64,000 nucleotides of DNA from a phage: assembly GCA_024682255.1 (NCBI GenBank), contig GCA_024682255.1_4716.1; one strand, written 5' to 3'. Shown here in pieces: positions 1 to 11,993 of the stretch (position 1 is the first letter of the stretch; every line of letters starts with the position of its first letter). Below the pieces are notes generated by a model, which did not search any database, was not told the DNA's origin, and saw only the letters and a list, made by a program, of their open reading frames with translations. The position numbers were made by a program, and so were the translations under genes.

Positions 1-1212
1 CGGCTGCGATACCGTAATCTCCACCCGATCGACATCGGTACGTTTAACGATGATAAGGCTACGTTCATCACCGAATGGTTCTGAGACCTTACAAGCCTCT
101 TTAAGATTTTCGAGAATCGTGCCATGGGGTTCAAACACCGCAAAACCGGAACTAGCATCGATTCTTATTAGACTTACACGCGTGCCGTTTACGGTGATGG
201 TGTCATCCGTCTTGAATTCACAACAGGAGGGTAGGCGGAACTGACCATTAACGCAATTAGCTAAGTATGCCTCACCACCAAACATTTCTATTAATGTCAC
301 CGGTTTGAATGTTTTCTCTGGGAAAGCATTATTAAGAATATCGTTTCCATTCACGAACCAGATCGTTACTTTATCTTCGGAATACGCTAGTCTGTACGGT
401 TGGGTTGCGGACGCTTGCGCTTTATGCTGGTTAAATAACTTTGATTTTGTCGCAATCGCAGCACGACCTTCGGCGTCGAAGTACAGAACTTCATATCCTA
501 CACATCCGATAAACACGCGACGGTTATTAAGTTCCGGAATTCTGACTAATAATGCTTCACCGTTGTATCCAGTAGGAACAATACCACGTAGGATGATAGA
601 TTCATTGTTCAATACCGAATTTTTCATGGTGATGCTTCGCATTATCGCTGGCGTCACTATTTTATCTTCGACAGGTTCAAGCTGCTCTGCTGTTACAGTC
701 ATGGATCTGTCTTCGTTTTCAACCGACCGATTAAAGACTATTTTATTAAGACAAACAATCGGTAGAATCCGGTCTACACACACGGTCTCATCGAAATGTG
801 CAGGAAAGCGAAAAATATACGGAACAAAAACATCAATATCGTCGGTTGCTTTTTCAAGCATATTAGCATATTCAACTGCTTTAGAACGACCGTTGAGAAG
901 AATAACCGCATAGATAACACTATCTTCCAACCATGCGCGGGTCGTACGCCCGATAATACGATTGGTGTCTATTTCAGCGCGCTGAGACTCCGGCGACCAC
1001 TTTACTGAGTTGACACCATCTACAACCACGTCGGCACCATCATCACACAAACTTCGTATGAACCGACTGACGGTCGCTGCATCGATCTGAATCCCAGCAA
1101 CCTCAATTTTCATCAATGGGATAACAAACTCATTATTACCGCACTTCTTTGCTCCGCGAATAATAGGAGTACTCTTCTTGTTTTCACCCGACCCCCAGAT
1201 AACTTTAGTCAT
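1..1212 (-). CDS. hypothetical protein, N-terminal ~400 codons only (gene continues beyond window start)
   Basis: Minus-strand frame open from window edge to an ATG at ~1210-1212 preceded by an AGGAAACAG RBS-like sequence; absent from ORF track because truncated; N-terminus MTKVIWGSGENKK...; no motif recognised. Confidence 0.45.
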   Translation of the reverse strand, partial: MTKVIWGSGENKKSTPIIRGAKKCGNNEFVIPLMKIEVAGIQIDAATVSRFIRSLCDDGADVVVDGVNSVKWSPESQRAEIDTNRIIGRTTRAWLEDSVIYAVILLNGRSKAVEYANMLEKATDDIDVFVPYIFRFPAHFDETVCVDRILPIVCLNKIVFNRSVENEDRSMTVTAEQLEPVEDKIVTPAIMRSITMKNSVLNNESIILRGIVPTGYNGEALLVRIPELNNRRVFIGCVGYEVLYFDAEGRAAIATKSKLFNQHKAQASATQPYRLAYSEDKVTIWFVNGNDILNNAFPEKTFKPVTLIEMFGGEAYLANCVNGQFRLPSCCEFKTDDTITVNGTRVSLIRIDASSGFAVFEPHGTILENLKEACKVSEPFGDERSLIIVKRTDVDRVEITVSQP

Positions 1213-1253
1213 TTTCTGTTTCCTTCTGAGTTTTGTACTAAGCTCTGACGACA

Positions 1254-1868
1254 TCATCGACGTTTCGTACCGACCTTCCCGTTTCGATGGTCATCAAGAA
1301 TACGCCATTCTTCGAACAGGAGTTCAGCAGCGAAATAACCTACGGCGATGCTGTCTATTGCATGCTCATCAAGATTCGCTAACACAACACCGTTCTTGGG
1401 TGTGATGTTCATGAGGTTCAATACTTTCTGGCGAACATCGTCCTTACCAACACGGGACGTCATAATCCCAACAGCGCGCTTTGCGCTTCGGTTATCAACC
1501 CCTAAGAAAGACACCGTAGGATCAAAATCGATAACCGTTGTCTGAATCGCTGAAAACAGCTCGCTGAGCGCCATACCGCTTTGCTTGAAACGACCGATGA
1601 ACGGTGTCTCACAAGCGACCGCTTGCGGCTGGTACTCTTGCAATAACGTTGTCAGCGAACGACGGTGTTCTTGGATACGTGCGGCACGATTACCGTATCC
1701 AAGCGCAATATCGCCATCGGGATCATATCGACGTGAAGCGTGCCATGTCCCCGCATACAGCAGTTCAATATCTTCGACACGCACGTCCAAACGTAGTAAC
1801 GACGCACCGAGCGTATCGGTGCCAGGGTCGATTGCCAGAATATCGTAAGCGTATTCTGGTGGGATCAT
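1254..1868 (-). CDS. RuvC-like Holliday junction resolvase (RNase H-fold nuclease)
   Basis: N-terminal YAYDILAIDPGTDTLG (RuvC motif with catalytic Asp), central ACETPF (Glu), C-terminal DEHAIDSIAVGYF (acidic pair); start moved from ORF-track 1895 to the ATG that overlaps the upstream TGA (ATGA). Confidence 0.55.
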   Translation of the reverse strand: MIPPEYAYDILAIDPGTDTLGASLLRLDVRVEDIELLYAGTWHASRRYDPDGDIALGYGNRAARIQEHRRSLTTLLQEYQPQAVACETPFIGRFKQSGMALSELFSAIQTTVIDFDPTVSFLGVDNRSAKRAVGIMTSRVGKDDVRQKVLNLMNITPKNGVVLANLDEHAIDSIAVGYFAAELLFEEWRILDDHRNGKVGTKRR

Positions 1869-2677
1869 GGTGTTACAACAGCCTCTACTGACCATGGGAA
1901 GGTTTTCGCAATAACGCCTTCCAGGAAGCGTTCAACTTCGGCTTGCTCATACACCGAAAGCTTTTCAAACGGTGTTTGGTCTTCGGTTAAACCTACCGCA
2001 TGAATAGGACCCAGGTCTTTAACCAGGGTAACTTCGCCTTTAACGCCTTCGCGTTTAACGATGATCGCGTGGTCATTAACCTTAGGATCATACAACACAC
2101 GCATCATGGTTACCGCGTCATCCGGTTCATAACCGAAATCGATAGCGACACGAGCATTCGTCCCTTCATCGTCCAGAAGCTTGCTTAGCGCTTTACAACG
2201 GTCTTCAATCCAATCCAACGCAACCACGGTTTCTTGGCGTAGCTGAACCTCAACTTCTTTTCCTTGTTCGTCGATACGTTTCACGGTAACAAAATCGTGT
2301 AATAAACGGTCAGGGAGGAGGGAAGCGATAAGCTCAACGTTGGGTTCAGGTTTTTCGTTTTCCAGAATGATGGTCGCTTGTGCGTCCAAATGTTCTTTAA
2401 AACGGATGTAACGTGTTAATCGAAGAACTTCGTCTTGGGATTTTGCGTCTTCAGGAATAATCTCCGTCATGACGTTATAGATCTTTTCAGCGAACGTCGG
2501 AATGACGGTGATTGTAATTCGTGCTGGCGTACCACGCTCTTGGTACTCATCGGCTAACTTCTTCGCCATCCCGTTAAAATAAGTCTGGAGAAACGGTTGC
2601 TGTGTTAAAAACATTTTCTCCAGATCGGAATAGCGATGCTTGCGTGCGTGGCCTAGCTTCTTCATGGGCTTTTTCAT
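1865..2677 (-). CDS. hypothetical protein
   Basis: 271-aa ORF; ATG at ~2677 with AAGGA RBS ~10 nt upstream (ORF track began at an adjacent TTG); sits between the Rad50-like and RuvC-like genes; no metallophosphatase (Mre11) motifs seen. Confidence 0.5.
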   Translation of the reverse strand: MKKPMKKLGHARKHRYSDLEKMFLTQQPFLQTYFNGMAKKLADEYQERGTPARITITVIPTFAEKIYNVMTEIIPEDAKSQDEVLRLTRYIRFKEHLDAQATIILENEKPEPNVELIASLLPDRLLHDFVTVKRIDEQGKEVEVQLRQETVVALDWIEDRCKALSKLLDDEGTNARVAIDFGYEPDDAVTMMRVLYDPKVNDHAIIVKREGVKGEVTLVKDLGPIHAVGLTEDQTPFEKLSVYEQAEVERFLEGVIAKTFPWSVEAVVTP

Positions 2678-2698
2678 CAACAGAAATCCTTATTTGTC

Positions 2699-5218
2699 TT
2701 AAATAATCGTGACGTGTTCGTTATATGTTTCAGGGAGAATGATGTTCGTTTTATCAAGAACCATACACTCGGCTTTACGGAATGACGCATGGTTGATTAC
2801 ATAGTGGCTGATGAACCACACTTGGCTTACACGGTGACCATCAACCAGACGACGAACAAAATCCATGGCATTAGATTGGTGCTGAGGATCAAATGTTGAT
2901 GCAAATTCATCTAACATCAACGGATAATCCGTGAACCCTTTGTAGTGCATCATCGCGATGATGAACGCGATGTTGATAATTTCCTTTTGTCCCTTACTCC
3001 CACAAACAATATCTTTTCGCGGTGTCGGATACTTCTCAGTTAAAAGCGGAAAACGATAGTTCAATCCTTGCGCGTCGATAGCACACGGAAGTATCTGAAG
3101 TTGGTATTCCCAAATACTCGCAATGATACCGTTCATGTACTCAACGAACGCGTTGATGGGACCCGCAATTGTTTCGGCAATCAGTCCGTTAGATGGACTT
3201 AACTCATCCAGAACAAGTTGTGCATAACCGAGTTGTTCTTCCACCTCTTTTTGTGTCGTTTCCAGCTGAGCCAGAAGCTGTTGGTCGGTTTTAGCTTCTT
3301 GTAGTTGCTGTTCGACATGACTTATTCGACGAACCGTATCAGACATCGCAGCACGTAACGATTTCGTGTAGAGGTGTTGCAGATACTCTAACCACAGTTG
3401 GGTTAACGCTTTATCGCTGTTATCAGAACGCACTTGATCTTCCATAATCGCCGTAATGGTTTCCAATCTACCTTCCGTAGCTGTAATGGCTTGTGTTAAC
3501 CGCTCAACGGTTGTTAACAACTCTGTCCTGTTCTTATAAAGCAATTCCCGACGTTGCTGTAACGGTTCAACATCAACTGCTTGTACACGTTCGAGCATGC
3601 CTTGAAGATGCTTCCGTTCTTGCTCGGCTTGTGTGTAACGCGCAAGTTTCTCGAACGCAAGCAACCAATCGTTAATGATTCCAATACTGCGGAATCCTAA
3701 ACCGTTTTTACGTCCTTCTTCCAGCAGATTATCCCACATGGGTTTAATGGCGTAATAATCCTTCGTCCAACGCGTTAACTGACGATGCTGTTCCATCCAG
3801 AGCGTATAGCGCTGAACCTTCTCGCTAAGCTCAGCTAACGATTTTTCTTGCTCTTCAACCCAAGCACGGCCCTTCTGAATACGCTGTTCAATACCCGCTT
3901 TGCTGGTCTTTTCTGTTTCACCAACATGAAAGCGATAGTTGCATTTTGGACAGCTGGTCTGGGGTTGATGGTTAAGGTGGTCGAGATGCGCTTCCAAATC
4001 GGCTAACGCATGTTTCGCGTTACGCAAACGCATTCTTGCCGCCTCTTCCTCCTTGATGTAAGCTTCAGCATCGTAGACGTGATAGGTGTTGTCGGTATCA
4101 ATCCATTCTTGGAGTAATTCCGTTAATGGAGCCTGAACTTGCGTGAGCTGCTGTAAACAAACCGCAGCGTCCAGATTCATCGTTAAAAGCTCACCTGGAT
4201 GATCATGCTGGAGTTGTTCGTCCAAACGTGCAAGGCGGGCTTTAATCTGATCGATATCACCTTCTCCAGACTGTTTCAACTGGTCAAGGATATTATCGAT
4301 GCCCAACAGCTCGTCAACCTGACTTTCGAGTTTCGCGTTCGCATTCGCGAGTTGTTCTCTTAGTTCTGCCAGATTCTGCTGTTCTTGTTGCGATGTTCCT
4401 CCTTGGTAACGAACAACCGCACGAAGAAGCTCGCGATTAAAATGATGGGCACGTTGTGCGGATTCCAGAAGCTGTCGTTGATCAACATCGCTGTCAAATA
4501 ACGGCAATCCCATCATCGCTTCGAGCGCTGAGCGTTGCTGTTTTAACTCTGCTTCCAATCCCTGGTGGTCGGTGCCCGTGTATTTCGCTTCAATGCGTTG
4601 TGATGTTTCAACCAACTTATTCAGTGTATGTTCGTTCACCGCTTTCAGTGAACGTACTTGTTGCTTAACAACCTGAAACAACTCGAGCGCGTAATCGACG
4701 TTAACCGGACATATCTGCGTTAATCGTTCACGACGTTTCATCGGCCCCATTTCGGTGAACTGGTAAGCTGTTTCGTAACCTAACAACAAACGAATGGTAT
4801 CGTCATTAAGTTCGAAATGTTCTTCAATCAGTTTCCATTGGGCCGGTTGTGTGCCACCACCGTTCAGGTTCTCGCTGTCGTTAACGTAGAACTCATGCTT
4901 AAACCCTTTTTCTAAACGACTGATAAGACGGTATTGTTTATTACGGTGTTCACAGCGGTACTCGTAATACCCGTCTTTATCAAAATCGGCACGCTCAGGA
5001 ACGGTCGGATACAGCAAAGGCAATAGACTACTCTTACCGGAACCATTACTGCCTAAAATGAGTTGTACGGGATTATCTGGCCGGATGACCAGCTCCCGAA
5101 TCATCCCGGTATCAAAACGATTGAATCCACGTAAGTGGAGATAGGTGCATCGCATGCTATGATAATCCTTCTTCGATACCTTCTGAACCACGGGTTCAGA
5201 ATGCGAAGCTGAAGACAT
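2699..5218 (-). CDS. Rad50/SbcC-like SMC-family ATPase (recombination/repair)
   Basis: N-terminal Walker A LILGSNGSGKSS; long central region rich in E/Q/L/R heptad-like sequence (coiled coil); central CPKCNYRF (CxxC zinc-hook-like); C-terminal Walker B/D-loop PLMLDEFASTFD and VWFISH. Confidence 0.7.
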   Translation of the reverse strand: MSSASHSEPVVQKVSKKDYHSMRCTYLHLRGFNRFDTGMIRELVIRPDNPVQLILGSNGSGKSSLLPLLYPTVPERADFDKDGYYEYRCEHRNKQYRLISRLEKGFKHEFYVNDSENLNGGGTQPAQWKLIEEHFELNDDTIRLLLGYETAYQFTEMGPMKRRERLTQICPVNVDYALELFQVVKQQVRSLKAVNEHTLNKLVETSQRIEAKYTGTDHQGLEAELKQQRSALEAMMGLPLFDSDVDQRQLLESAQRAHHFNRELLRAVVRYQGGTSQQEQQNLAELREQLANANAKLESQVDELLGIDNILDQLKQSGEGDIDQIKARLARLDEQLQHDHPGELLTMNLDAAVCLQQLTQVQAPLTELLQEWIDTDNTYHVYDAEAYIKEEEAARMRLRNAKHALADLEAHLDHLNHQPQTSCPKCNYRFHVGETEKTSKAGIEQRIQKGRAWVEEQEKSLAELSEKVQRYTLWMEQHRQLTRWTKDYYAIKPMWDNLLEEGRKNGLGFRSIGIINDWLLAFEKLARYTQAEQERKHLQGMLERVQAVDVEPLQQRRELLYKNRTELLTTVERLTQAITATEGRLETITAIMEDQVRSDNSDKALTQLWLEYLQHLYTKSLRAAMSDTVRRISHVEQQLQEAKTDQQLLAQLETTQKEVEEQLGYAQLVLDELSPSNGLIAETIAGPINAFVEYMNGIIASIWEYQLQILPCAIDAQGLNYRFPLLTEKYPTPRKDIVCGSKGQKEIINIAFIIAMMHYKGFTDYPLMLDEFASTFDPQHQSNAMDFVRRLVDGHRVSQVWFISHYVINHASFRKAECMVLDKTNIILPETYNEHVTII

Positions 5219-5269
5219 ACTTCAGCGTTATTTTCTATATCGTTATTTAAATCAGTAGGAGATTACAGC

Positions 5270-6358
5270 ATGAGCGACCTGGCAACAGACAATCGCACAA
5301 AAGGGAGTCAGCTAGCTCCAGACAACAACGTAAGCGTTTTCCGTATCTATGCCTTGGGTACTGTTGCTGCCGACTTTTCCAATAAAAGTCTGGAGGAAGA
5401 TCCTAACCAAACGCTGGAGGTCTTTCTTGATGAGATGATGTCAGGCGCTGATGGGAAAGTTGAAGCGGCGGGAAGCGTTAAAGAAGTCAGTGCAACAGAC
5501 GCTCAAGGGAACAGCTATACGGCGAAAGCGGCAACAACAACCAGCGTACAGTGTTACTGGTTACCTTTCGGCAGTAACCGGATGACAGCACCTAACTTGA
5601 GGAAAGGTCAGCGTGTGGTGGTTTGGCGAACCGCGGATGAAGAACAACTCTACTGGCAACCCAAAGGTGGGGATAGTGAGCTGATGACCATGGAATCGGT
5701 TATCCTCACCGTCAGCGCACGTCCTAGCGCTAAGAAGGACCGTAAATCGATTTCAACGGAAGACTGCTATTACCTAATGGTTGATACCTTTCTTAAGAAA
5801 GCGGTTATCGGTACCAGCGCACAGCTTGGTGAAGTTACCCAAGTTTACATGGAACTTAATCTGGACGAGGGTTACCTACAGGTTGCGGACAGCGTTCATC
5901 AAAATCTGCTGTTACTCCATTTCGTTGAACATATGCTGCGTTATCAAAACCAGGACGACAGCATCATCGACGTGACAAAAAAGAACATCACATTCCAATG
6001 CGAGGATACGCTCAAAGCAATTGCTAAGAACGATATCCGAATGAAAGCAAAAAACATTTATACCGAATGTGAGAACTTCGAGCGTACCAGCAAAACAGAA
6101 AGCGTTACGAGTCAGAATGTTTCTTTGAAGTGTGATCGTTACACCGCGCAAGTATCAGGACAGACCACGTTTAAATGTCCGAATACGGTATTCACTGGAG
6201 CTGTAAGCTTCACAGGTGAAGACGGAAACACGATGACGTTGAATGGGAACTTCATACACATCGCAGGCTCTTGGCGTTCACCAACCGGAACAAACGTATA
6301 CACTCACGACCACGGTGGCGTTAAATCCGGTAGTAGTAGAACCGACCCGTTCCAATAA
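5270..6358 (+). CDS. putative baseplate central spike / cell-puncturing protein (gp5/gpV-like)
   Basis: AGGAG RBS before ATG; OB-fold-like segment CYWLPFGSNRMTAPNLRKGQRVVVWRTADEEQLYWQP resembling gpV/gp5 N-domains; repetitive beta-strand-like C-terminal half ending in an HDH (HxH) motif as at metal-binding spike apexes. Confidence 0.45.
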   Translation: MSDLATDNRTKGSQLAPDNNVSVFRIYALGTVAADFSNKSLEEDPNQTLEVFLDEMMSGADGKVEAAGSVKEVSATDAQGNSYTAKAATTTSVQCYWLPFGSNRMTAPNLRKGQRVVVWRTADEEQLYWQPKGGDSELMTMESVILTVSARPSAKKDRKSISTEDCYYLMVDTFLKKAVIGTSAQLGEVTQVYMELNLDEGYLQVADSVHQNLLLLHFVEHMLRYQNQDDSIIDVTKKNITFQCEDTLKAIAKNDIRMKAKNIYTECENFERTSKTESVTSQNVSLKCDRYTAQVSGQTTFKCPNTVFTGAVSFTGEDGNTMTLNGNFIHIAGSWRSPTGTNVYTHDHGGVKSGSSRTDPFQ

Positions 6359-6378
6359 AAAAAAAGAAATGCTATACA

Positions 6379-6414
6379 ACCTCCTTCCCTAGCCATCAAG
6401 GCCGGGGAAGGAGG
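6379..6414. terminator. CT-rich/GA-rich hairpin between convergent genes (same stem class, different loop)
   Basis: CCTCCTTCCC-TAGCCATCAAGGCCG-GGGAAGGAGG; A8 tract upstream and TTATAGTTTATTTATT downstream. Confidence 0.5.
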
Positions 6415-6429
6415 ATTATAGTTTATTTA

Positions 6430-6819
6430 TTAACGCGTTGCGTTCTGGATGATTTCTTTTCCGATCTTAACCAAAGCGGGTATCTGCACAGCGGTTGCGC
6501 CTCGATGACGAAACGCGGTCGTTAACGCAGTATCGATACTCACCGCACGTCCATGAAGACGATCGAAATAGACTTGAGTGATTGCGGTAGCGTAATCCTT
6601 TCGCTGTTTCTTGGTTTGGCTCAACAGCGCCGCACTACGACTAACGATGAAGTAAGCGATTAAGAAGAACGCCGCTGACCGCGAACCAGGTAGAAAACCT
6701 TGTCGCTTAGGAAGCATCTCACAATCGCGAACAGAATTATCGTTCGCGAGCTCTTCCATGTCAACACGGCATAATTTTGCATAGGTGTGGAGATAGTGGG
6801 TAAAAGTTGAATTTAACAT
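6430..6819 (-). CDS. hypothetical protein
   Basis: 129-aa ORF with GAGGAAAG RBS before ATG; no motif recognised. Confidence 0.5.
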   Translation of the reverse strand: MLNSTFTHYLHTYAKLCRVDMEELANDNSVRDCEMLPKRQGFLPGSRSAAFFLIAYFIVSRSAALLSQTKKQRKDYATAITQVYFDRLHGRAVSIDTALTTAFRHRGATAVQIPALVKIGKEIIQNATR

Positions 6820-6924
6820 TTTCTTTCCTCGATTACAATGAGTTCAATGTATAGCTTAAACGTCACAGAACGACGTATAACGGTTTGTTTTAATTTCTAA
6901 GGGGTTTCCTTATCTACGATTGAA

Positions 6925-7287
6925 TTAAAGCGTTCTGAAGAGTTCTGTAGCGTTCTCGTCACGTAAACAGGCTTCGTTCAACAATTCAGCTAACAGCTTC
7001 GACCGAACTTCAACAAATGTCCTGAGGCGATGCTCCCATTCTAAACGGATAGTGTAAGTATTATCCAGGTTTTTGTAGTCAACGACAGATACCGAGCAGC
7101 GGGGTTCACGTTTGTTCACAGCATCCCAAACATCACGGATAACCGTCACGCCTTTCTTGGTACACGTAAACGTTAAAATAAAGCGATTATTCGCTGCTTC
7201 TTCACGGACATGACTAAATTCACTTCGTAACGATGAGACTTTGATAAGTCGGTCAATAGCTAACGATAAACCGATACGTTGTTGCAT
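6925..7287 (-). CDS. hypothetical protein
   Basis: 120-aa ORF with AGAGGGGA RBS; abuts the next gene. Confidence 0.5.
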   Translation of the reverse strand: MQQRIGLSLAIDRLIKVSSLRSEFSHVREEAANNRFILTFTCTKKGVTVIRDVWDAVNKREPRCSVSVVDYKNLDNTYTIRLEWEHRLRTFVEVRSKLLAELLNEACLRDENATELFRTL

Positions 7288-7288
7288 A

Positions 7289-7714
7289 TCAAATCCCCTC
7301 TTTCAGAATCTCATTAAGACCGTCAGTAATCCAGTCGAACTTCGTCTTAATCATGGCTGGGTTCAATCCATATACTTCCCACACAAGCTGGGGTTTATGT
7401 GTTCCATCGTCCAAACAAAGCACATCGATTGAGAGTACCATACCACCCGTCAATTTCATGTTCTCGCAACTACGAAGATATGCGGATTCTAGCAATACTT
7501 TCCCTAACGCAGTGCAAGCAAATGTTAACCGGGAAGAGTACAGGTACGATGACGTTTTACAGTAGGTTGCTGATATCGGTTGAATATGTTTGCGGAGTTT
7601 GGCGTCTTCACGTAAAAGCAATAACGTGTGATGTAACCGCGTATGCTCGGTAACCGATGAGCTATACTCACCGATACACTCTTCGGCGACTGATTTAGGC
7701 CATTTAATTTTCAT
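7289..7714 (-). CDS. hypothetical protein (paralog of 7730..8173)
   Basis: 141-aa ORF, GAGGA RBS; N-terminus MKIKWPKS and HHTLLLL resemble MEIKFCKS and QHTLERL of the neighbouring ORF. Confidence 0.5.
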   Translation of the reverse strand: MKIKWPKSVAEECIGEYSSSVTEHTRLHHTLLLLREDAKLRKHIQPISATYCKTSSYLYSSRLTFACTALGKVLLESAYLRSCENMKLTGGMVLSIDVLCLDDGTHKPQLVWEVYGLNPAMIKTKFDWITDGLNEILKEGI

Positions 7715-7729
7715 GTTCGATTCCTCGTA

Positions 7730-8173
7730 TTAACACTGTGTTCCATTCGATAAGCGGGTGGTATCAAAACGATCCAGTTGGTGTACAATGCTATCAGCAA
7801 CACGATGCAAATAGTGTATTTTGTCCATTCGTGAAATCGCAGAAATCGTCCAGCAAGCCTCTGACGTCCAATAGGTGCCGTCTTCACTAAGGCTAACGTT
7901 ATAAACTAACTTCGTCATCACATTTCTCGCCTTATGCTCAGCAGACCAGAATATGTTTTCTAACACATCCTTCCCCGTTTGTGAAAACACGAACCCAAGC
8001 TTCACGTCGAAGTCGGATGCTTCAAGATTAACGCAGTGAAGATGATTCTCTAACGGCGCAAAAGAGGCTAAACGTTCCAGCGTATGTTGCAGTGTGGGAT
8101 GATCGAGCTTTTCGAGATCATCCACAGGTCGTTCAGGTACAATCGCGATCGATTTACAGAATTTAATTTCCAT
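7730..8173 (-). CDS. hypothetical protein (paralog of 7289..7714)
   Basis: 147-aa ORF, AGAGGA RBS; shared N-terminal signature with 7289..7714. Confidence 0.5.
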   Translation of the reverse strand: MEIKFCKSIAIVPERPVDDLEKLDHPTLQHTLERLASFAPLENHLHCVNLEASDFDVKLGFVFSQTGKDVLENIFWSAEHKARNVMTKLVYNVSLSEDGTYWTSEACWTISAISRMDKIHYLHRVADSIVHQLDRFDTTRLSNGTQC

Positions 8174-8285
8174 GGTAGGTTCCTCTTGATAGTGGTTGAT
8201 GATAGTAACGGGGACGGCGATGTCCCCTTGGTTTCTTATTGCCCCGCCCGAACCCGATGGGGTACAGGCGGGTGATGTTGATGCG

Positions 8286-8693
8286 TTATAGCGGCATCAG
8301 ACGTTCTTTAAGTTGGGTTAACTTATTCGCAACGATGGTCTCAACATCGATCATCTTGTTCATGTTGTCGAGGGTATCCTGCCAGATGAAAATATCCACG
8401 GAACCGGTTCCGACTAACGCGTTCTCAGGACGATGGTCGCGGGTCACGTAGCGTGGTCTCTGCGGGCAGGTTTGTAACTCGATCCAAAGCGCATCTAACG
8501 GACCGTGGTCCGTGACACCTAAGGCGAAGAATTCACCTCTTACGACCAGAACATCATCAGCCGTCCTGACACGGGTTGATCCTTCGTACACCAATTCCAT
8601 CTTTGCTCGGCAGGCCGGGTTCCCGTTCCACGCCTGGACGGCATCGGCAAGGGCTATTGACGTTGCGGTGGTGTTCGTTTGATCATGTTGCAT
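8286..8693 (-). CDS. hypothetical protein
   Basis: 135-aa ORF with GAGGAG RBS. Confidence 0.5.
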   Translation of the reverse strand: MQHDQTNTTATSIALADAVQAWNGNPACRAKMELVYEGSTRVRTADDVLVVRGEFFALGVTDHGPLDALWIELQTCPQRPRYVTRDHRPENALVGTGSVDIFIWQDTLDNMNKMIDVETIVANKLTQLKERLMPL

Positions 8694-8771
8694 TCTAAGC
8701 TCCTCAATCGTTCTACAACGAACTTTTAATGGAAGGGAATATGTTTCCCTTCTTTGGATTCGTTTATTGCG

Positions 8772-9047
8772 TTATACGGCTTTTCTGTGCGCGTAGAACG
8801 CCTTCGTTCCGTTGTTGATTGCTTCAACCACATCCCGGGTTAACACAACGGCGTTATCGCTTCGAGACGACGGTGCGTAATACCCTTCACCGTTCTCGGT
8901 AATCAGGCGATAACGGACTAAGCCTATGCTCGGTTCAACACGTAGCACCTTTTCAAGTTTGTATTTGATGATCTTCGTCAGGCTGACTGTGTCTGACGCG
9001 TAGATTGCTTTATAAACCTTGTTCTTTGTTGTCGGTTTCATCAACAT
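8772..9047 (-). CDS. hypothetical small protein
   Basis: 91-aa ORF in operon context; weak RBS. Confidence 0.4.
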   Translation of the reverse strand: MLMKPTTKNKVYKAIYASDTVSLTKIIKYKLEKVLRVEPSIGLVRYRLITENGEGYYAPSSRSDNAVVLTRDVVEAINNGTKAFYAHRKAV

Positions 9048-9087
9048 GATTTCTGTTGTATTTTCCTTTTCGCTTGTTGGTGTTGGA

Positions 9088-9387
9088 TTAAGGTTTAGGT
9101 TCCGTTTTGTGTTGTGCGAGTAGTATGTTGATCTGCTCCCGTTGTTCTTTTAAGCATGCGGGAAGCTGGTCTTCCCGTACCGTTCCGATTTCCAACGTGA
9201 TGTACCAGCGTTGTTCGGAAGCCTGCCATTGAAAACTGCTCTGTAAACGAAGGATGCTAGGATCACGTACCTTGTTTGCGCTGTAGCGGTTGAACCAAAC
9301 CAGGTAAGCGGCTTTTCCTTCCTCGTCGGCAACGTAACGCTGCACGCTGTTCTTGCCTTTGTTCTCGTATCCTGTTGTACGTATCAT
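9088..9387 (-). CDS. hypothetical protein
   Basis: Start re-assigned to the ATG (MIRTTGYENKG...) that overlaps the upstream TGA as ATGA; ORF track started earlier at 9441 inside the upstream gene. Confidence 0.45.
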   Translation of the reverse strand: MIRTTGYENKGKNSVQRYVADEEGKAAYLVWFNRYSANKVRDPSILRLQSSFQWQASEQRWYITLEIGTVREDQLPACLKEQREQINILLAQHKTEPKP

Positions 9388-10166
9388 GCGAACGTTTCTC
9401 CTGCAGCGTGTTGCGGATGGCGTAGCATGGTAGCATCCCATTGTACGAACCGGCTCCGGCTTACCCGCATCATGATGGATTCATCGTCAAGCCCTGGTTG
9501 CACAACCGGTAACCAACGTTCGTTAAGCACCTTCGCTTCAACGCGTTTCTTGCGTGGGTTGTAACGCACCCCGCTAACCCAAGCGAATCCAAGTGGATGC
9601 ACAACCCGTGGATAATACATGCGAAGCAATTGATGCATCCGATCCGTTGCCTCCAAGCTCGCATCCGCCATGTAAGGTTTCACCATGGTAAGCTTTTTGG
9701 TATAATACGTACCAACGGTATGGTTACGCCAACTTGGCAAGGCATGATCCCCTTCTCTCAGTTTGCTATCCGGGTTCATCGGCCAGACCTGCTGTTTACC
9801 GGCCAGCATCGCGTACTGCCGATCAACGCAACGAACCTGATCGGCGAACAATGGATCCAGGATATCATCCACCGCACCCTTATTGCGATAACCGTGATGT
9901 ACCACCAACCTGCTTGCGCTCATCCGTTGCGGATGCTGGCTCTTATGCGCATACAGTCCTCCGTCACCGCGAGCGTCGTAAAGATAACCGCATGCGCCAC
10001 GCCATATCACCTTGCCTACGGTTCTCTCGTCTTCAAGCAGCATCGTCGGTCCATCAAGCAAATTGGTGAACCATTGCACCTTCACGCATTCCGCTTGAAC
10101 GCACTCAGGTAATGCCTGATACTCTTTTTGGGTGTATAAGGTATCAAAAATGATTTCATCGTTCAT
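9384..10166 (-). CDS. hypothetical protein, first gene of a minus-strand operon
   Basis: 260-aa ORF with AGAGGA RBS; lies immediately downstream of the 0.9 kb non-coding region. Confidence 0.55.
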   Translation of the reverse strand: MNDEIIFDTLYTQKEYQALPECVQAECVKVQWFTNLLDGPTMLLEDERTVGKVIWRGACGYLYDARGDGGLYAHKSQHPQRMSASRLVVHHGYRNKGAVDDILDPLFADQVRCVDRQYAMLAGKQQVWPMNPDSKLREGDHALPSWRNHTVGTYYTKKLTMVKPYMADASLEATDRMHQLLRMYYPRVVHPLGFAWVSGVRYNPRKKRVEAKVLNERWLPVVQPGLDDESIMMRVSRSRFVQWDATMLRHPQHAAGETFA

Positions 10167-11093
10167 CTAAAAAGTTCCTCTGTTTCACGTTAATTAAACA
10201 ACGTATTGATTTCTGGTAACGATAACAATCCTAGTGATGTTATCAAAAAGGTAACGCTTACGCGTCGCGTTCATGATGCCATGCATCATGAAGGTAATAT
10301 AGCCGTGAAAGGATTTGTGTTACAGAAAGGGTTTTGTTGTTTTTAAGAAGAGATGGATTTAGAAGAGGTGTTGCAAGCAAGGAAGGTAAACGAGGATAGG
10401 TATTTTGATTTAAGTAAGTAAGATGTTATCTGTATTCGTTAAAAATGTATTGTCTAAGTTATCTTGTTTATCTTAGGTTATGTCTTATTGTTTAATCGTT
10501 TAATATTTTTATCTAAGTAGGTTTAACTCTATCTTGTTTGTATATTTAAATTAATTTAAAGTAGATCAATAAGCTTATCTTCAAAACAATGGATAACATG
10601 TGTTTACTACCTTAACGGTAACACATGTCATCTGTGCATTCACTCCGTTATCACTTCGTTACATGCTTATCAACGTTTTGTCTTCACAAAACGTTCAACT
10701 CAAAAAACCATTTGTGATACTCTTCTTCACGTTGTTCATCAGAGTATCTCGTCTATACTCATTGCATTCGTATACGACATAACCGTTATACGCTAACGCT
10801 ACGCTTATAGCTTGATAACTCTAAGGATAAAAACATAAACTCGCTTCGCTCGTTTAGTTTTTCTTTTTCTTAGAGTTATCCTGTTGCTCGTCTCTAAAGG
10901 ACTTCGCTCCTCCCCCGTCCCCCGAAGGGGCCGAGGTCGTGGAAATTTTACTTTCCAAATACATTTACAACATCTGTAAACTTTTACTCCAGGTACTTAA
11001 TCTTATCATTAGAAATTATAAAAGAGAAGAATAAACACAAACATAAACCTTCCTCCAACCCAACAGGGAAGGAGGAAGGGGGATTAATTAAAA
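10167..11093. other. long AT-rich non-coding region with reiterated TTATCT-type motifs and inverted repeats (regulatory hub, origin or ncRNA candidate)
   Basis: No ORF with RBS support in ~0.9 kb; repeated TTATCTTGTTT / TTATCTAAG motifs around 10.42-10.56 kb; 12-bp inverted repeat GATAACTCTAAG...CTTAGAGTTATC around 10.81-10.88 kb. Confidence 0.5.
11048..11079 (-). terminator. conserved hairpin element, AACCC-N4-GGGAA core (copy), downstream of 11094..11993
   Basis: CCTTCCTCCAACCCAACAGGGAAGGAGGAAGG; on minus strand followed by TTTATGTTTGTGTTTATT; identical 32-mer recurs at ~58629. Confidence 0.55.
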
Positions 11094-11993
11094 TTATACG
11101 GGAGCGTTAACGTTATAACCGAATACTGCTTTACCGTAGGTGTGAGTACCGTCAGCTAACGACAGCACCAGCACATTGCCGTACGTAGCGTTAACGCCCT
11201 TGTCGGTAGACTCGAGGGTATCACCGTTATAGACAAAGGTAGCTGTTTGCAGATTGGCTTTCAGTTCATTGATGATCTCATCACTTACACCGGTCTGCTC
11301 TTTGATCAGGGTGGTCAGGTTACCTGCCAGGCTTTCATCGATCTTGGTTTCGTTACTGGTAATCGCCTGTAAACCTACGCCGTAGATGCTGAAGTCTAAC
11401 GGATAGGTTAACAGACGCGCTGACGTTTTGGTACCATCGCCTTCATCAACGTAGGTTAAGTTACCCAGGTTGGTAACCTTGATGATGTTAGCCAGATCCA
11501 GCGTGGTGTTATAAACTTTAACTTGAACCGAGCCATACCACGCCAACGAATCTTCTTTGGCTTCCAGGGTGATCGTCTGGATACCATGCTGGTCGAAGGT
11601 AACCGGCGTAGCTAACGTTTCGGCTTTGATGTCTTTCGCTTTATCCAGGAACTTCTCACCGGAAGGCGTGATCATACCGTAGCGTTGAGCTACAAGGTCA
11701 ACCACGTCACCAATAGTGGTGTTCGCATTAACGTTAACACGTACAGCGATTTTCTGGAACCACTTAGCCAGATCCAGACGATGGTAGGTAACATCGCGTT
11801 CATTGAAGTAAGGGGTACCTTCACCTGGGCTAAGCGTTAAAGTTGCTTCTGGAGCAGAAGGATTCTTTTCTTTAAGAACGTATTTAAGGTCGGTGTATTT
11901 GAAGCTGGCACCAGTGTCGGCGTTGAGTTTGTTAATCTCATCAACGATAAGTTGCCAAGGTGTTTTTAAAGTAAGCGATACTTGAGCTGTCAT
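11094..11993 (-). CDS. putative virion structural protein, member of YYDR...LAWxGSV paralog family
   Basis: 299-aa ORF with AGAGG RBS; motifs TYHRLDL, AQRYGM, SLAWYGSVQV shared with 12135..12677, 23050..23955, 24872..25723, 25734..26681; monocistronic with hairpin terminator. Confidence 0.6.
   Translation of the reverse strand: MTAQVSLTLKTPWQLIVDEINKLNADTGASFKYTDLKYVLKEKNPSAPEATLTLSPGEGTPYFNERDVTYHRLDLAKWFQKIAVRVNVNANTTIGDVVDLVAQRYGMITPSGEKFLDKAKDIKAETLATPVTFDQHGIQTITLEAKEDSLAWYGSVQVKVYNTTLDLANIIKVTNLGNLTYVDEGDGTKTSARLLTYPLDFSIYGVGLQAITSNETKIDESLAGNLTTLIKEQTGVSDEIINELKANLQTATFVYNGDTLESTDKGVNATYGNVLVLSLADGTHTYGKAVFGYNVNAPV

Follow-up and report, generated by a model that had tools for sequence, protein, structure and literature searches.

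We describe a cluster of DNA-metabolism genes at the start of a 64,000-nucleotide stretch of phage DNA (NCBI GenBank assembly GCA_024682255.1, contig GCA_024682255.1_4716.1; hereafter the window), with emphasis on a gene for an SbcC/Rad50-like ATPase and on the nuclease with which its product would work. An original prediction, made from the letters of the window, had presented these genes as a recombination module in which the expected Mre11/SbcD nuclease was missing, and had proposed that this partner was either a highly divergent neighbor of the ATPase or a different nuclease altogether.

Four consecutive minus-strand genes fill the first 5.2 kb of the window and are located as that prediction had placed them (Table 1). 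Bases 1–6400 correspond to positions 4865–11206 of Escherichia phage vB_EcoM_Goslar with 95% DNA identity. Goslar is a phiKZ-like, nucleus-forming jumbo phage (a chimallivirus), with genes for a nuclear shell protein and the tubulin PhuZ in its record. Judged by this match, the region is a leftward-transcribed DNA-metabolism gene cluster of a Goslar-like chimallivirus, that is, of a nucleus-forming jumbo phage of enterobacteria. The Goslar counterparts run from gp012, annotated as 'putative SbcC-like protein' and 98.8% identical to the ATPase of the window, through gp011 (a protein of 270 amino acids) and gp010 (RuvC) to gp009 (the truncated open reading frame, ORF), with the thymidylate kinase gp008 (Tmk) coming next.

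Table 1. Positions of the genes, motifs and other features in the first part of the window
Feature	Position	Strand	Remarks
Predicted SbcC/Rad50-family ATP-binding cassette (ABC) ATPase, 818 amino acids	2699–5155	−	Orthologue of Goslar gp012, phiKZ gp165 and SPN3US gp186; phrog_77
Walker A / P-loop GSNGSGKS	5030–5053	−	Residues 56–63 of 839; invariant positions in homologue alignment
CPKC, zinc-hook-like CxxC	3941–3952	−	Midpoint of the long insert between the ATPase halves
C-terminal ATPase half	2804–3001	−	GSKGQ 2987–3001, Walker B LMLDE 2906–2920, H-loop ISH 2804–2812
270-amino-acid ORFan, Goslar gp011	1865–2677	−	Restricted to the Goslar clade; no family match
ATGA overlap of ORFan stop and RuvC start	1865–1868	−	Read from sequence
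Predicted RuvC-family Holliday junction resolvase, 204 amino acids, Goslar gp010	1254–1868	−	PF02075, phrog_159
Hypervariable 410-amino-acid protein, Goslar gp009 family	1–1212	−	C-terminus lost at window edge; prohead-protease-like N-domain
Hairpin GCTGAAGACATACTTCAGC	5208–5226	.	Intergenic region between the divergent SbcC-like and baseplate genes

The SbcC-like ATPase

The open frame of the ATPase gene extends from 2699 to 5218 on the minus strand and would give 839 amino acids from an upstream ATG at 5218, a codon that sits within the intergenic hairpin. Translation probably begins at the ATG at 5155, which yields 818 amino acids and is the start shared by the homologues, the Goslar annotation and gene calls made independently on a Logan contig. 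In the numbering of the longer frame, the C-terminal motifs are found at residues 740–744 (GSKGQ), 767–771 (LMLDE) and 803–805 (ISH), and the central CPKC at residues 423–426 (402–405 of 818), within the sequence CPKCNYRF. Conservation was assessed and a family profile built from five sequences that are 24–49% identical (the window family, a diverged relative, Noxifer, RAY and a phiKZ-type phage), and in this alignment C-P-x-C is invariant. Invariant positions among the homologues also include N58, G59, G61, K62, S63 and S64 of the P-loop region, together with D770, E771, F776, D777, S804 and H805 of the C-terminal half, which correspond to Walker B, the FD of the D-loop and the H-loop. The GSKGQ sequence is a variant of the SGGQ/E signature, and the C-terminal segment aligns with the C-terminal half of P. 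furiosus Rad50. Approximately 480 residues separate the two ATPase halves, forming symmetric arms of about 240 residues on each side of CPKC in which Pro and Gly are few, and the profile alignment extends into the beginning of the Rad50 coil. An invariant glutamine, Q127, occurs near the non-conserved Q-loop position (window 4757–4780, ATPase residues ~147–154).

The ATPase matches PHROG 77 ('SbcC-like subunit of palindrome specific endonuclease'; 1.1e-74). When the five-sequence profile was compared with the PDB, archaeal Rad50 ranked at the top (3aux, 9.4e-9; 5f3w, 1.1e-8), with five Rad50 chains of P. furiosus next, and the NCBIfam profile Rad50_Sulf aligned at its positions 441–552, the hook region, with residues 390–504 of the ATPase (E 1.1e-5). 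On the strength of these profile matches and of the invariant central CPxC, the protein is assigned to the Rad50/SbcC family, in agreement with the original prediction, which had described a Rad50/SbcC-like ATPase with a zinc-hook-like CxxC. The same prediction had credited the protein with the full set of ABC/SMC motifs; Walker A, a signature-like sequence, Walker B and the H-loop are all present, but a conserved Q-loop glutamine is not, so that this part of the description was slightly too generous.

Among known systems, SPN3US gp186 and phiKZ gp165 are orthologous to the ATPase of the window, with 24–27% identity over more than 90% of the length, the same motifs and the same CPxC. SPN3US gp186 has been described as SbcC, an essential protein and the homologue of phiKZ ORF165 (Thomas et al., 2016; PMC5105663). 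In the E. coli SbcCD and T4 gp46/gp47 systems, too, the ABC ATPase is split by a long insert that has a CxxC hook at its center, although their similarity to the chimallivirus proteins is detectable by profiles only.

A probable distal SbcD gene

The observation that no Mre11/SbcD partner is evident near the ATPase gene holds for the whole window: a hidden Markov model (HMM) of SbcD, built from an alignment that took in E. coli SbcD, identified no SbcD-like ORF among the 315 window ORFs of at least 60 amino acids in the 64 kb. Applied to Goslar, the same HMM retrieved exactly one ORF, gp178 (NC_048170.1, 162609–163751, minus strand), which is listed as a 'hypothetical protein' in both the GenBank and the RefSeq records. 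The phiKZ RefSeq record annotates the gene between ORF64 and ORF66 (gp65) as 'SbcD-like subunit of palindrome specific endonuclease', and a tblastn search of Goslar with phiKZ gp65 gave gp178 as its single match (32% identity over 366 residues, E 2e-46). The protein also matches phrog_100 (SbcD-like; 1.8e-40). In the SbcD alignment, D-x-H, G-D-x-x-D and G-H-x-H are invariant, while EGTxxHD and H-G occur in at least 90% of the sequences, and gp178 is a clear predicted member of the SbcD/Mre11 family of metallophosphoesterases.

Simpler searches had not revealed this gene. A regular expression for GNH[DE] and linked metallophosphatase motifs found nothing in any ORF of the window or of Goslar, because motif III of the chimallivirus proteins reads EGTxxHD and not GNH(D/E). 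A tblastn search of phages with E. coli SbcD did not reach the chimalliviruses. Thus, gp178 can be annotated as SbcD-like, and simple motif scans will miss its EGTxxHD variant.

In Goslar, gp178 lies about 158 kb away from the SbcC-like gene. A comparable arrangement was found in ENA ERZ28615929 scaffold_12 (236,896 bp), which carries genes for SbcC (818 amino acids, SMC_N), the 270-amino-acid protein, RuvC (204 amino acids), a gp009-like protein of 407 amino acids and Tmk at ~173–184 kb, together with, at ~97–103 kb, a gene whose product is identical to Goslar gp178, approximately 78 kb from the SbcC-like module. The 90%-identity clusters of gp178 and of the 270-amino-acid protein are of comparable size, with 254 and 302 members, respectively. 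The two subunits are also co-distributed more widely: SbcC-like homologues were found in 287 phage records and SbcD-like homologues in 315, with SbcC-like/SbcD-like counts by genus of 81/81 for Pseudomonas, 60/62 for Erwinia, 24/24 for Salmonella, 22/23 for Vibrio, 21/21 for Serratia, 19/19 for Aeromonas, 16/16 for Klebsiella and 13/13 for Ralstonia. Many of the SbcD-like homologues, including that of SPN3US, are already annotated as 'nuclease SbcCD, D subunit'.

This separation is a published feature of the group. The SbcC and SbcD genes were described as 'drastically separated' in SPN3US, phiKZ and their relatives, gp27 being the SbcD of SPN3US, and functionally linked genes are typically scattered in phiKZ-like genomes (Thomas et al., 2016; PMC5105663). 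The split SbcC/SbcD arrangement of phiKZ-like phages is therefore already known. Both genes are core in the family: the core genes listed as having knock-down phenotypes include phiKZ 065 ('Nuclease') and 165 ('SbcC-like nuclease') (PMC12571901), and zero transposon insertions were recovered in phiKZ orf165 (10.1101/2025.11.23.690004). The main text of the core-genome preprint mentions neither SbcC nor SbcD. By comparison, the sbcC and sbcD genes of E. coli overlap in one operon and those of T4 are clustered, whereas in Goslar-like phages they are ~78–158 kb apart. The D-x-H, GDxxD and GHxH motifs of E. coli SbcD align with the gp178-type calcineurin-like nuclease, and the chimallivirus system differs from those of E. 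coli and T4 in motif III and in the Q-loop.

Another Goslar protein, gp157 (NC_048170.1, 140999–141556; 185 amino acids, Metallophos_2), is the sole annotated metallophosphoesterase of that phage. It was considered as a partner and rejected, being sporadic, lacking the extra domains of Mre11 and having a distribution that does not track the SbcC-like gene. Its relatives occur in 130 records, mostly of Enterococcus, Streptomyces and Bacillus phages but also of Erwinia Yoloswag-like phages, and it shows a weak match to PdeM; gp157 appears to be an accessory gene unrelated to SbcCD.

The reading that we favor, to which we assign a probability of about 0.82, is that the window carries an ordinary SbcC/Rad50-type ATPase and a RuvC of a Goslar-like phage, and that the nuclease is an SbcD encoded far off in the same genome (the orthologue of Goslar gp178, phiKZ gp65 and SPN3US gp27). 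It draws, at the sequence level, on the family membership of the ATPase, of RuvC and of the distal SbcD, on the co-distribution of the latter with SbcC, and on two neighboring proteins that carry no SbcD-like feature. The physical pairing of SbcC with SbcD and its biological role would follow by analogy with E. coli SbcCD and T4 gp46/gp47. The apparent orphan Rad50 is not a real anomaly, since the genome has a recognizable SbcD-like gene at another site and the arrangement has been published. The choice that the original prediction offered, between a divergent neighbor and a different nuclease, accordingly did not hold up against a recognizable SbcD in Goslar and in a second Goslar-like scaffold. 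That prediction had also named a canonical Mre11 gene just outside the window as the finding that would overturn it; an Mre11-family gene does lie outside, but at a distance that is not 'just' outside.

Under this favored reading, the ATPase would comprise two ABC half-domains joined by an insert of ~480 residues that folds back on itself and bears the CPKC hook at its apex for dimerization. By analogy with E. coli SbcCD, Mre11-Rad50 and T4 gp46/gp47, it would dimerize through its heads and the zinc hook. On binding ATP, the heads would then close onto DNA ends or hairpins, placing an SbcD dimer for cutting and resection, which would feed recombination-dependent replication and repair. RuvC would resolve four-way junctions or branched intermediates, probably before packaging. 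The distant location of the SbcD gene would have no mechanistic consequence.

Several points weigh against this account. The position of the Rad50 Q-loop glutamine is occupied by Y, L, M or K in the ATPase homologues, and the Mg/ATP-sensing loop of chimallivirus SbcC-like proteins may be built differently. The match of the ATPase to Pfam SMC_N (7.5e-10, 39 bits) falls 1 bit below the cut-off of 40, and that of gp178 to Pfam Metallophos is weak (E 0.04). A long antiparallel coiled coil with an apical zinc hook should be present, but this architecture is read from the sequence of the insert. The presence of SbcD in the window's own phage is deduced from Goslar and the second Goslar-like scaffold, and the literature covered contains no experiment on a chimallivirus SbcC-like/SbcD-like complex.

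The locus is significant mostly for correct annotation. Among nucleus-forming phages of the phiKZ type, the gene for the SbcC-like ATPase is already recognized as core and essential, and the lack of an adjacent Mre11 gene is to be expected in a chimallivirus window and is not grounds for flagging an orphan Rad50.

The ORFan, RuvC and alternative explanations

The frame between the ATPase and RuvC genes (1865–2680, minus strand) comprises 271 codons, although the homologues, the Goslar annotation and the Logan-contig gene calls point to the ATG at 2677 as the likely start and hence to a protein of 270 amino acids. The gene begins 21 nt after the end of the ATPase gene. No relevant family was found for the protein in Pfam (including Metallophos), PHROGs or NCBIfam. 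Within a phage collection of 50,697 records it occurs in Goslar only, and among 5.8 billion proteins it forms three clusters. An exhaustive HMMER profile search covering 1.84 billion representatives yielded one more real relative of full length (P0004), and no paralogues were found in Goslar or near the SbcC, SbcD or RuvC genes of other phages. An identical copy of the protein is encoded on a single Logan contig of 10,991 bp. The AlphaFold2 (AF2) model has a predicted local distance difference test (pLDDT) score of 50, and a Foldseek search with this low-confidence model returned nothing below E 0.09. Three diverged family members (44–45% identity) share 77 invariant residues, none of which is His, and no calcineurin-like motif (D-x-H, GDxxD, GNH(D/E), H or GHxH) is present in the protein. 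The gene product is thus, as far as its sequence can be read, an ORFan specific to the Goslar clade and not a metallophosphatase, which bears out the earlier remark that it lacks the motifs of that family.

The ORFan might be a lineage-specific recombination accessory, for example one that partners SbcCD or RuvC by binding DNA or in a regulatory role. Its place between the genes for the SbcC-like ATPase and RuvC, with an overlap into the latter, is kept in lineages only 45% identical; it is strongly conserved in Goslar-like phages, as its large 90% cluster attests; and the N-terminal 160 residues of the family are well conserved, with a basic N-terminus. Set against these features are the lack of any homology or confident fold, its absence from all other chimalliviruses examined, and the fact that phage gene order says little about function, and we regard this role as doubtful. 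The more specific proposal that the ORFan is an accessory subunit coupling end-processing by SbcCD to junction resolution by RuvC inside the phage nucleus is slightly less likely still.

RuvC itself is recognized by Pfam PF02075 (26.7 bits against a cut-off of 22.2) and by phrog_159 (2.1e-21). Its putative catalytic residues D14 (in AIDPG), E87 (in ACETP) and H169/D172 (in EHAID) have RuvC-like spacing and are conserved in the diverged relative L010. Bacterial RuvC (PF02075) and the jumbo-phage RuvC-like proteins (phrog_159) share these D-E-H-D residues and are of similar size; they differ in that no RuvA or RuvB is seen in the Goslar annotation, and a jumbo-phage RuvC without RuvA/RuvB partners has been noted before (Iyer et al.; PMC7824862). 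The ORFan gene ends ACA CCA TGA and the RuvC gene begins ATG ATC CCA, so that the two share the ATGA at 1865–1868; both the resolvase and its overlap had been correctly called in the original prediction. The order SbcC-like, 294-amino-acid homologue of the ORFan, RuvC and Tmk is kept in L010, where the ORFan homologue overlaps RuvC by 50 nt and not by ATGA.

Another possibility is that a different nuclease, for instance the RuvC encoded next to it, serves the ATPase in place of SbcD or alongside it. The SbcC-like, ORFan and RuvC genes are indeed contiguous and on the same strand, the last two overlap, and their order persists at ~45–49% identity. However, the adjacency is confined to the Goslar clade. 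RuvC homologues occur in 213 phage records, and in RAY, Noxifer and Eowyn 11–17 kb separate the RuvC gene from that for the SbcC-like protein; phiKZ-type phages retain the latter protein but carry RusA, not RuvC (Iyer et al.; PMC7824862); and the SbcD-like and SbcC-like genes co-occur almost record for record. Work with a different nuclease, RuvC included, is therefore improbable. In RAY, Noxifer and Eowyn, RuvC lies directly 3' of a series of paralogous genes for virion structural proteins of ~290 amino acids; it overlaps the preceding virion gene in Noxifer and Eowyn, in place of the ORFan overlapped in the Goslar clade, and is separated from it by an 11-nt gap in RAY. Eowyn has a thymidylate kinase after RuvC. 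The ORFan is unrelated to these virion paralogues (hhalign probability 0.1%). Because RuvC elsewhere follows unrelated virion genes at 11–17 kb from the SbcC-like gene, the 'recombination module' is a Goslar-clade arrangement. The RuvC-Tmk linkage looks ancestral, and the adjacency of SbcC, the ORFan and RuvC looks like a rearrangement specific to that clade. In comparison with SPN3US and phiKZ, the SbcD gene is likewise unlinked, whereas the ATPase gene of the Goslar clade is followed by the ORFan and RuvC and other chimalliviruses differ downstream.

A further possibility is that the ATPase is not a Rad50/SbcC orthologue and instead represents another SMC-like or ABC ATPase, such as RecN, RecF or a defense-type AAA_15/AriA-like protein. 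A single-sequence phmmer search against PDB sequences gave no match, the five-sequence profile being needed; NCBIfam matches are weak and mixed (ABC transporters, RecF); some phage records name the homologue RecN-like or recF; and the Q-loop is not conserved. Nevertheless, the top seven PDB matches of the family profile are all to Rad50, with AriA, PtuA and SMC appearing at E > 0.003 only, the central invariant CPxC with arms of ~240 residues is a hallmark of Rad50/SbcC, and an SbcD-like gene is co-distributed. An ATPase of another kind, which the original prediction had named as a profile-search outcome that would overturn it, is thus very improbable.

Least likely of all is an extremely divergent Mre11/SbcD subunit in the ORFan or the truncated ORF, a proposal that has in its favor the position of the ORFan gene directly after the ATPase gene and the lack of a family assignment for both proteins, and against it the fact that metallophosphatases need several His residues while the ORFan family has no invariant one, the hhalign probability of 0.1% that each protein scored in the comparison with the SbcD profile that the original prediction had suggested, the prohead-protease-like character of the one confident domain in the truncated ORF, and the genuine SbcD-like gene elsewhere in the genome.

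The truncated gene and the intergenic hairpin

The truncated ORF exits the window at base 1, with 404 of ~410 residues present and approximately six C-terminal residues and the stop codon missing. Translation probably begins at position 1212, at an ATG with a good Shine-Dalgarno sequence; this start leaves a 41-nt gap after RuvC, so that no second ATGA overlap occurs. The family libraries searched gave no match. In the AF2 model, residues 20–160 have pLDDT values of 73–89, and a Foldseek search with this N-domain retrieved T4 gp21 (5jbl, 6e-4) and 66 viral matches, many of them prohead proteases. Residues 1–175 of the family contain no conserved His that could be catalytic, and the sole conserved Ser, S163, stands at the C-terminal edge of the domain. 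The modeled similarity to prohead proteases is therefore one of fold only, and the truncated ORF is not the nuclease partner of the ATPase.

The gp009 family is hypervariable: its members in Goslar-like contigs, which come from assemblies of E. coli, Salmonella and Shigella, form 181 clusters at 60–95% identity. The window copy shares just 60% identity with Goslar gp009, against 98.2–99.5% between the three flanking proteins and their Goslar counterparts, and no gp009-like gene occurs between RuvC and Tmk in L010. This pattern suggests an accessory gene under diversifying selection. The most variable part of the protein is residues ~40–160, the prohead-protease-like domain.

At the opposite end of the cluster, the intergenic region separates the SbcC-like gene from a divergent baseplate gene (5270–6358, plus strand, phrog_3216). 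The hairpin listed in Table 1 has a perfect 7-bp stem followed by a T-rich tract, and it lies upstream of the SbcC-like and baseplate genes alike. The Goslar annotation places a terminator at the equivalent site, even though this site is upstream of both flanking genes.

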